Part shown: positions 3,600 to 4,334 of the stretch, piece by piece | How positions within the stretch are numbered: position 1 is the first letter of the stretch | Layout of the letters: each line of letters starts with the position of its first letter | Virus record (IMG/VR): IMGVR_UViG_2541047428_000018 | Reading direction: 5' to 3' (one strand) | Source: a virus | Lineage: Duplodnaviria > Heunggongvirae > Uroviricota > Caudoviricetes | DNA: 8,103 nt | Program-made: the position numbers and the translations under genes | The notes under the pieces: generated by a model | The model's input: only the letters and a program-made list of their open reading frames with translations | Databases searched by the model: none | Told to the model about the DNA's origin: nothing

Positions 3600-4334
3600 A
3601 TGGAGACTGTTTTTGACGCACTGAAAGCGATGGGAAAAGCCACGTCGGTATAGCTGGCTGCGCGACTTGATATCAGTCGTGAAGAAGTACTGAACGAGCT
3701 GTGGGAACTGAAAAAGGCTGGCTTCGTTGATAAAAGCGTATACACCTGGCGTGTGGCTGATAACAACGTTCAGCAGGAACAGCCAGCGCCAGAAGAAACC
3801 ACCACGGCAACAGAAGCGAAAATCTCAGAGTGCGATTTAACCGCGACGATTGAACAACGCGGACCACAAACGGCGGATGAACTGGCTACGCTGTTCGGTA
3901 CAACATCCCGCAAAGTTGCTTCAACGCTGGCAATGGCAATCAGCAAAGGTCGTCTGATTCGCGTAAACCAGAACGGTAAAATTCGTTACTGCATACCAGG
4001 TGATAATTTACCAGCAGAGCCGAAAGTTGAATCGGTAGCGGAAACCGATGGTAAAGCCTTTCCTCAGCCAGCCGGTGTTGCGTTACCGGTACAGAAAGAT
4101 GCAACACAGGAAGATATTAAAACAGAAACTGTGGCGGACATTGTGCAGTCGCTGCCATCGTTTACTGCAACGCGAGAAGATGATTTGATTTTGCCATCGC
4201 TGCATATGGCAAATCGCGAACTGCGTAGGGCGAAGAATCATGTCCAGAAGTGGGAGCGAGTCTGCGCCGCGCTGCGGGAGCTGAACAAGCACCGGGATAT
4301 GGTTGCCGGGATTTGTCGGAAGTCCGGGCAATGA
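3600..4334 (+). pseudogene. Tandem winged-helix (wHTH) protein gene interrupted by an in-frame amber codon at 3651-3653
   Basis: Strong ribosome-binding site GGGAGG (3588-3593) 6 nt before ATG 3600. Reads [54 protein letters not shown] and continues in the same frame to TGA 4332-4334. The stop falls where a wHTH normally has Glu or Gln; the second repeat reads [13 protein letters not shown]...[11 protein letters not shown]. The ORF track only calls the downstream part, from GTG 3753. Confidence 0.6.

Follow-up and report, generated by a model that had tools for sequence, protein, structure and literature searches.

The locus described here raises the question of why a prophage gene that is otherwise intact should carry an amber codon close to its start. 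In the window (the whole stretch of DNA that was analysed, 8,103 nt), a reading frame on the plus strand opens at ATG 3600-3602, with a GGGAGG Shine-Dalgarno sequence (3588..3593) placed 6 bases 5' of the ATG. Only the stretch with the ancestral start codon and codons 1-17 (3600..3650; METVFDALKAMGKATSV) remains translatable from this native start. Codon 18 is an amber TAG (3651..3653), and the remaining 226 sense codons together with the terminal TGA at 4332-4334 (3654..4334) are open yet severed from the native start. A first-pass annotation made from the sequence had pointed to the same arrangement of GGGAGG, ATG 3600, TAG at codon 18 and long same-frame continuation, and our own reading confirmed it; the 227 codons that it counted after the TAG agree with our figure if the TGA is included. 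The frame's sole entry in the program-made list of open reading frames is one of 193 aa that starts at a GTG (3753..4334). The answer that we favour, with a probability of roughly 90%, is that the gene would be an ordinary, recent nonsense pseudogene (Glu18amber) and neither a recoding signal nor a sequencing error.

To which family the gene belongs is clear from its repaired 244-aa product. This product matched Pfam DUF1627 (PF07789) over residues 84-236 (308.8 bits, cut-off 28.1, E = 8e-93) and phrog_630 (PHROG 630, annotated as function unknown) over its full length (E = 2.5e-121), and it has 2724 database relatives at E <= 1e-5. PF07789 had been assigned beforehand, in precomputed form, to all of its close relatives. 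The 51 nt 5' of the TAG are conserved at the DNA level in Rac-SA53 and identical in the O55:H7 and O145:H28 prophages, and the GGGAGG at 3588-3593 is identical in all three. Given the DUF1627 match, the 2724 relatives and the DNA conservation of the 51 nt before the TAG, we take it that this is not a chance open frame. We assign the gene to the YdaW/DUF1627 family of Rac-like and lambdoid prophages, the copy here being a putative pseudogene member in which the uninterrupted coding sequence that defines the family is broken by the TAG at codon 18. Winged-helix matches in the NCBIfam and PADLOC scans were all sub-threshold and assigned no function.

Many complete E. coli O157:H7 genomes contain the stretch 3500-4400 with 100% identity, and the 'PPompW' prophages of O145:H28 with 99.9%; we identify the locus from these matches as a YdaW-family gene in a PPompW-type lambdoid prophage of E. 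coli O157:H7. PPompW prophages have been described as defective, with several pseudogenes (PMC8112680). In annotated records the gene order is dicA-like, dicC/cro-like, YdaT, DnaT-like (YdaU-like) initiator, lambda-P-like loader and DUF1627 gene, followed on the 3' side by a 54-aa ORF, a broken fimbrial gene, paa and hok/sok. The earlier description of the gene as replication-adjacent fits this order, with two replication genes lying immediately upstream on the plus strand: the initiator at 2072..3112 (PGAP 'DnaT-like ssDNA-binding domain-containing protein'; phrog_1032, replication initiation protein, E = 9e-91) and the helicase loader at 3105..3566 (PGAP 'replication protein P'; phrog_109, P-like helicase loader, E = 1e-61). 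Downstream, on the same strand, the ATG of the 54-aa ORF (4331..4495) overlaps the TGA of the ydaW-family gene in an ATGA; PGAP annotates it as WP_001505071.1 in both O157:H7 and O55:H7, and it matches phrog_30109, annotated as function unknown. We discarded a terminator-like hairpin at 3541-3557, which was no commoner than in shuffled sequence.

Several other features of this neighbourhood are worth recording. The fimbrial-protein pseudogene (4500-5033), between the 54-aa ORF and paa, has a frameshift and an internal stop according to PGAP; it is broken already in O55:H7 and LSU61 and is thus older than the amber mutation. A sok antitoxin RNA at 6141-6290, adjoining a hokD-type toxin ORF, was the sole Rfam match above the gathering threshold (103.9 bits). 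An IS1203 element (IS3 family) that is absent from the window interrupts the DnaT-like initiator in the O157:H7 strains PV15-279 (L001:2063-3275), 28RC1 and F3398, another step in the decay of this replication module.

We aligned 43 full-length distant relatives (21-66% identity), drawn from an exhaustive representative search, with the repaired product. The first residue is a Met aligned with ATG 3600 in 35 of the 43, and position 18 is Glu in 37 and Gln in one. Conservation among these relatives reaches 90% or more at L8, M11, K13, A14 and A20, L34 and W50 are invariant, and R209 is nearly invariant in the family. The first-pass annotation had allowed that homologues might begin at the equivalent of 3753 and leave 3600-3650 unconserved; rather, their first codon corresponds to 3600, and few parts of the protein are as well conserved as residues 1-23. 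We therefore rejected both GTG 3753 and CTG 3654 as the start of the gene, given where the homologues start, the conserved N-terminus and the absence of a Shine-Dalgarno sequence at either codon.

What the codon was before it became a stop could be read from orthologous loci. The prophages of O55:H7 RM12579, O157:H7 LSU61 and O145:H28 (PPompW) and phage Rac-SA53 all have G at 3651, giving GAG (Glu), and base 3651 is the sole difference across the 735-nt gene between the window and the O55:H7, LSU61 and O145:H28 PPompW prophages. The codon at 3651-3653 in homologous prophages, which the first-pass annotation had proposed to look up, was GAG in all orthologous loci examined, and a very recent GAG-to-TAG change, one of the two point changes that it had named as the simplest explanation, thus gained direct support. 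The atypical O157:H7 strain LSU61 encodes the intact 244-aa protein (WP_000450692.1) with GAG and has been placed between O55:H7 and the two O157 branches (PMC3309690). A paper comparing O55:H7 with O157:H7 makes no mention of a ydaW-family gene. A 71-mer centred on the TAG was found exactly in 293 complete-genome records, and every sampled serotype-labelled one was O157:H7, serotype being read from the labels of sampled records. The same 71-mer with GAG was exact in 311 other records, including O55:H7, O145, O111 and O26. A stop at position 18 was seen in none of the 43 relatives, the orthologous loci examined or the 311 GAG records.

The surrounding DNA gives the change a relative age. A query of 2.4 kb taken from LSU61 with its intact allele (L007:1802-4202) was 100% identical, or nearly so, in O55:H7, O26:H11, O103 and O111:H11, and we interpret this early/replication module as a very recently shared prophage module. 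The module (window about 1300-3700) is near-identical across E. coli backgrounds, O145:H28 PPompW among them, and all of these carry GAG. Over 6061 aligned bases, four lineage changes set typical O157:H7 apart from LSU61: one nucleotide is deleted at 638, T replaces G at 1331 and at 3651, and G replaces T at 2068. The change at 1331 lies within the AAGGGG Shine-Dalgarno of the cro/dicC-like gene (ATG 1338), and that at 2068 falls in a G-run (2067-2068) just before the initiator ATG at 2072 and also alters the C-terminus of YdaT. The tail (3654..4334) matches the intact O55:H7 and LSU61 alleles at every base, and fewer than one further substitution would be expected in these 681 nt at that divergence. 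With four changes in 6 kb, the tail would be open still because the mutation is very young; we do not take its openness to mean that selection has continued, since fewer than one further hit is expected at such divergence. Taken together, these comparisons identify the TAG as a derived GAG-to-TAG change that probably arose within the O157:H7 lineage after an LSU61-like intermediate. As expected of a nonsense pseudogene, orthologues have a sense codon and the stop is reproduced in independent assemblies. Hundreds of public genomes already contain the TAG-bearing sequence, and the pseudogene is of an ordinary kind.

We also predicted the structure of the repaired protein with AlphaFold2 from the 43-sequence alignment (mean pLDDT 82, pTM 0.38); the low pTM may be attributed to flexible linkers. 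The first predicted winged-helix domain, residues 1-52 (3600..3755), has three helices and two strands at pLDDT 94-98, and the amber codon would fall in its second helix (residues 16-23). Residues 4-46 gave sub-threshold sequence matches to HTH_20, ArsR/SmtB and MntR. The second, residues 72-131 (3813..3992; pLDDT 89-97), sits at the beginning of the Pfam DUF1627 region and gave marginal profile matches in a PDB sequence search to AspA, Z-alpha and ArsR/MarR (E = 6e-4 to 0.02). In the model a disordered linker separates the two domains, a disordered acidic, proline-rich linker follows at residues 132-177, and the chain ends in a helical region (residues 178-243; 4131..4328) with a helix pair at 201-243 and pLDDT 94 for 211-240. 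The model and Foldseek matches support the tandem winged-helix architecture proposed in the first-pass annotation as a predicted fold, without membership in any characterised family. Its comparison of the two repeats around the stop (TADELA versus TSVELA) also holds, with Glu at the equivalent position.

Before turning to what the mutation would do, we weighed the alternatives to a simple nonsense pseudogene. Single-base stops can be errors as a general matter, and the right end of the window looks chimeric, but beyond this prior nothing speaks for a sequencing or assembly error concealing a sense codon. Many laboratories contributed to the 293 complete-genome records that match the TAG 71-mer exactly, the best 30 records listed agree over the whole 901-nt stretch (100% identity), and the T is found again in L006, an unrelated draft contig whose 3' end differs. 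Since those 293 exact records were independently assembled, we consider the error that the first-pass annotation had entertained to be excluded, with a negligible probability left to it. Low-level expression is an alternative that we consider improbable. Here the gene would be expressed either through amber read-through by a near-cognate or suppressor tRNA, giving a full-length protein with, for example, Gln18, or through restart at CTG 3654 or GTG 3753, giving an N-terminally shortened protein that retains the second winged helix and the C-terminal helices. The tail is indeed an intact open frame, the one relative with Gln18 implies that such a protein could be tolerated, and database clusters contain many N- or C-terminal-only versions of the family, many of which may be contig ends. 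In E. coli, termination at UAG is comparatively weak if the next base is C. The TAG here has C in that place, and trace read-through may occur. This C opens a CTG that PGAP accepts as a start codon, annotating from CTG 3654, directly after the stop, a 226-aa 'DUF1627 domain-containing protein' (WP_077744273.1) not flagged as a pseudogene. However, the stop is a derived state found in a single clonal lineage, and a stop so specific would probably have no programmed role; a conserved or programmed stop was rejected because it is absent from all relatives. ARAGORN detected no tRNA genes in the window, the sequence to which the scan was applied, and hence no suppressor tRNA near this unconserved stop. 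The native Shine-Dalgarno duplex with the 16S rRNA 3' end is the strongest among the in-frame start contexts (-10.3 kcal/mol), with -3.1 for CTG 3654, -0.9 for GTG 3753 and -0.1 for ATG 3933, none of which has a Shine-Dalgarno sequence; no in-frame ATG, GTG or TTG after the TAG has a duplex stronger than -4.8 kcal/mol. Of the best-conserved domain, a product from 3654 would have lost helix 1 and some of helix 2, and a product from 3753 would retain nothing. The youth of the mutation fully accounts for the open tail. The suppression or reinitiation suggested in the first-pass annotation thus found no support in the conservation of the stop, the tRNA content of the window or the sequence before GTG 3753, and we regard WP_077744273.1 as an apparent annotation artefact of a nonsense pseudogene.

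A different objection accepts that the protein is gone but gives its loss a purpose. The amber would then be a selected loss, or a strong down-tuning via rare read-through, of a replication-module accessory protein with a possible anti-defence role, brought about during the emergence of typical O157:H7; the protein might, for example, modulate prophage replication or counter host defence, and its removal might stabilise a defective prophage carrying paa and effector genes. We give this slightly less credence than low-level expression. The typical O157:H7 genomes that were sampled share the mutation, which is one of only four branch changes in 6 kb, with two of the others in ribosome-binding regions (cro-like gene, initiator gene); the ydaW of K-12 Rac is independently truncated; and overexpressed Rac ydaW came up as a blocker of a retron toxin in one screen (bioRxiv 10.1101/2020.06.22.160242). 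However, fixation in a clonal lineage requires no selection, one nonsense change among four fits drift in a defective prophage, and the family has no established function, with PHROG 630 unannotated and no NCBIfam or PADLOC match above threshold. If selection were nonetheless the cause, the amber would have been fixed with the two nearby ribosome-binding-region changes as the paa/effector prophage was domesticated.

Rather, we propose that a single G-to-T transversion at 3651 turned Glu18 (GAG) into an amber codon (TAG) in the O157:H7 lineage. Ribosomes would still load at the strong native site and release a 17-residue peptide, and with no efficient restart the full-length protein, consisting of two winged-helix domains, a disordered linker and a C-terminal helix pair, would be effectively lost. 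The 54-codon ORF at 4331-4495 was probably coupled to ydaW translation, and its own translation is now probably reduced. The mutation itself would have no selective meaning; with G3651T, a prophage that had been called defective before has one more gene out of action. The amber carries little weight beyond three uses. As a single-base marker, G3651T (Glu18amber) cleanly tells typical O157:H7 apart from O55:H7 and from the LSU61-type intermediate in a prophage module that otherwise hardly varies, the pseudogene reading corrects the RefSeq annotation of WP_077744273.1, and the intact and broken alleles (LSU61 or O55:H7 versus EDL933 or Sakai-type) form pairs that are available for studying YdaW.

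The window as a whole appears composite. In O157:H7 genomes, positions 6337-8103 match, at 100% identity, a prophage location other than that of the left 6.3 kb; the right end, for instance, maps in strain 28RC1 at 377 kb and the ydaW locus at 5.49 Mb. The switch (junction about 6337-6515) lies inside the hok/sok region, and no complete genome covering the whole window at high identity was found. Either two prophages recombined to give the window, or it is a chimera made in assembly. At the left end, positions 1-250 differ from all compared loci at 7, 127, 134, 136 and 139 and by an indel at 248, which suggests another mosaic boundary. The draft contig with the TAG allele mentioned above (L006:1-3880, GCA_051684065.1) is identical to window 2453-4148 and, after a breakpoint at 4148/4149, continues into a Rac-like 3' end of the gene and then a DUF977 gene, with a 231-aa call ('MAARLD...'). 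This switch is evidence of a probable recombination inside the ydaW-family gene after the mutation arose, by which the mutated 5' part would have taken part in prophage mosaicism.

Among characterised structures, the best Foldseek matches in the PDB were ScpB (3w6j_E, 2z99), ESCRT-II subunits and the SelB C-terminus (E = 3.4e-4 and weaker), which share with the predicted protein two consecutive winged helices of three helices and two strands each. However, there is no detectable sequence relationship to ScpB-type proteins, and a C-terminal helix pair and a disordered acidic region are additions of YdaW; the whole-chain rmsd of 11-16 A reflects two domains joined by a disordered linker, and the resemblance is one of fold only and gives no indication of function. 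Membership in ScpB was rejected as a fold match only (E = 3.4e-4, 17% identity), no ScpB family having appeared in the Pfam and NCBIfam scans. Single domains superimpose on ArsR/SmtB, MarR, AspA, FeoC and Z-alpha at 1.2-2.4 A over 55-64 residues (Foldseek), and none of the metal-binding or dimerisation elements of the ArsR/SmtB, MarR, AspA and Z-alpha families were identified in the YdaW domains. An ArsR/SmtB metalloregulator was rejected on scores below the cut-offs (NF033788, 23.5 bits versus 55; HTH_20, 24.6 versus 27). In the literature on ydaW and DUF1627 we found only the retron screen cited above, a list that places YdaW among uncharacterised transcription factors, and a synteny remark that notes DUF1627 genes near the PasA/PasC small RNAs.

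The closest comparison is with the K-12 Rac prophage, whose YdaW (DUF1627, PHROG 630) belongs to the same family and lies in the same place, right after the replication genes; the ydaW region of Rac-SA53 has 90% DNA identity to the gene studied here. The K-12-type Rac copy is also disrupted, but it matches the family over residues 1-147 only and then diverges, whereas here a single amber at codon 18 interrupts a gene whose rest is intact. In two E. coli loci with a K-12-type Rac (L011 and L012, 3950-4561), the ydaW truncation is an independent event in another lineage. The intact allele WP_000450692.1 of O55:H7, LSU61 and O145:H28 PPompW differs in having GAG instead of TAG, is annotated at 244 aa and has identical neighbours. 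The upstream loader is lambda-P-like here and DnaC/IstB-like in Rac, and both arrangements recur in a context survey of 13 species-level loci (L009-L021; 10-sequence alignment query) from Escherichia, Citrobacter, Serratia, Salmonella, Enterobacter, Leclercia and relatives. In all 13 loci the DUF1627 gene adjoins the replication module, mostly right after the helicase-loader gene. The loader directly upstream is lambda-P-like in four (L010, L014, L015, L016) and DnaC/IstB-like in five (L009, L017, L019, L020, L021). In L013 a small extra winged-helix ORF lies between a DnaC/IstB-like loader and the DUF1627 gene, L018 has an HTH_36 protein upstream in place of the loader, and L011 and L012 are placed by layout alone, their upstream ORFs being arranged as in L009. 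Because this position is kept across two unrelated loader types, the comparison suggests that the role of the DUF1627 gene may be tied to the replication module.
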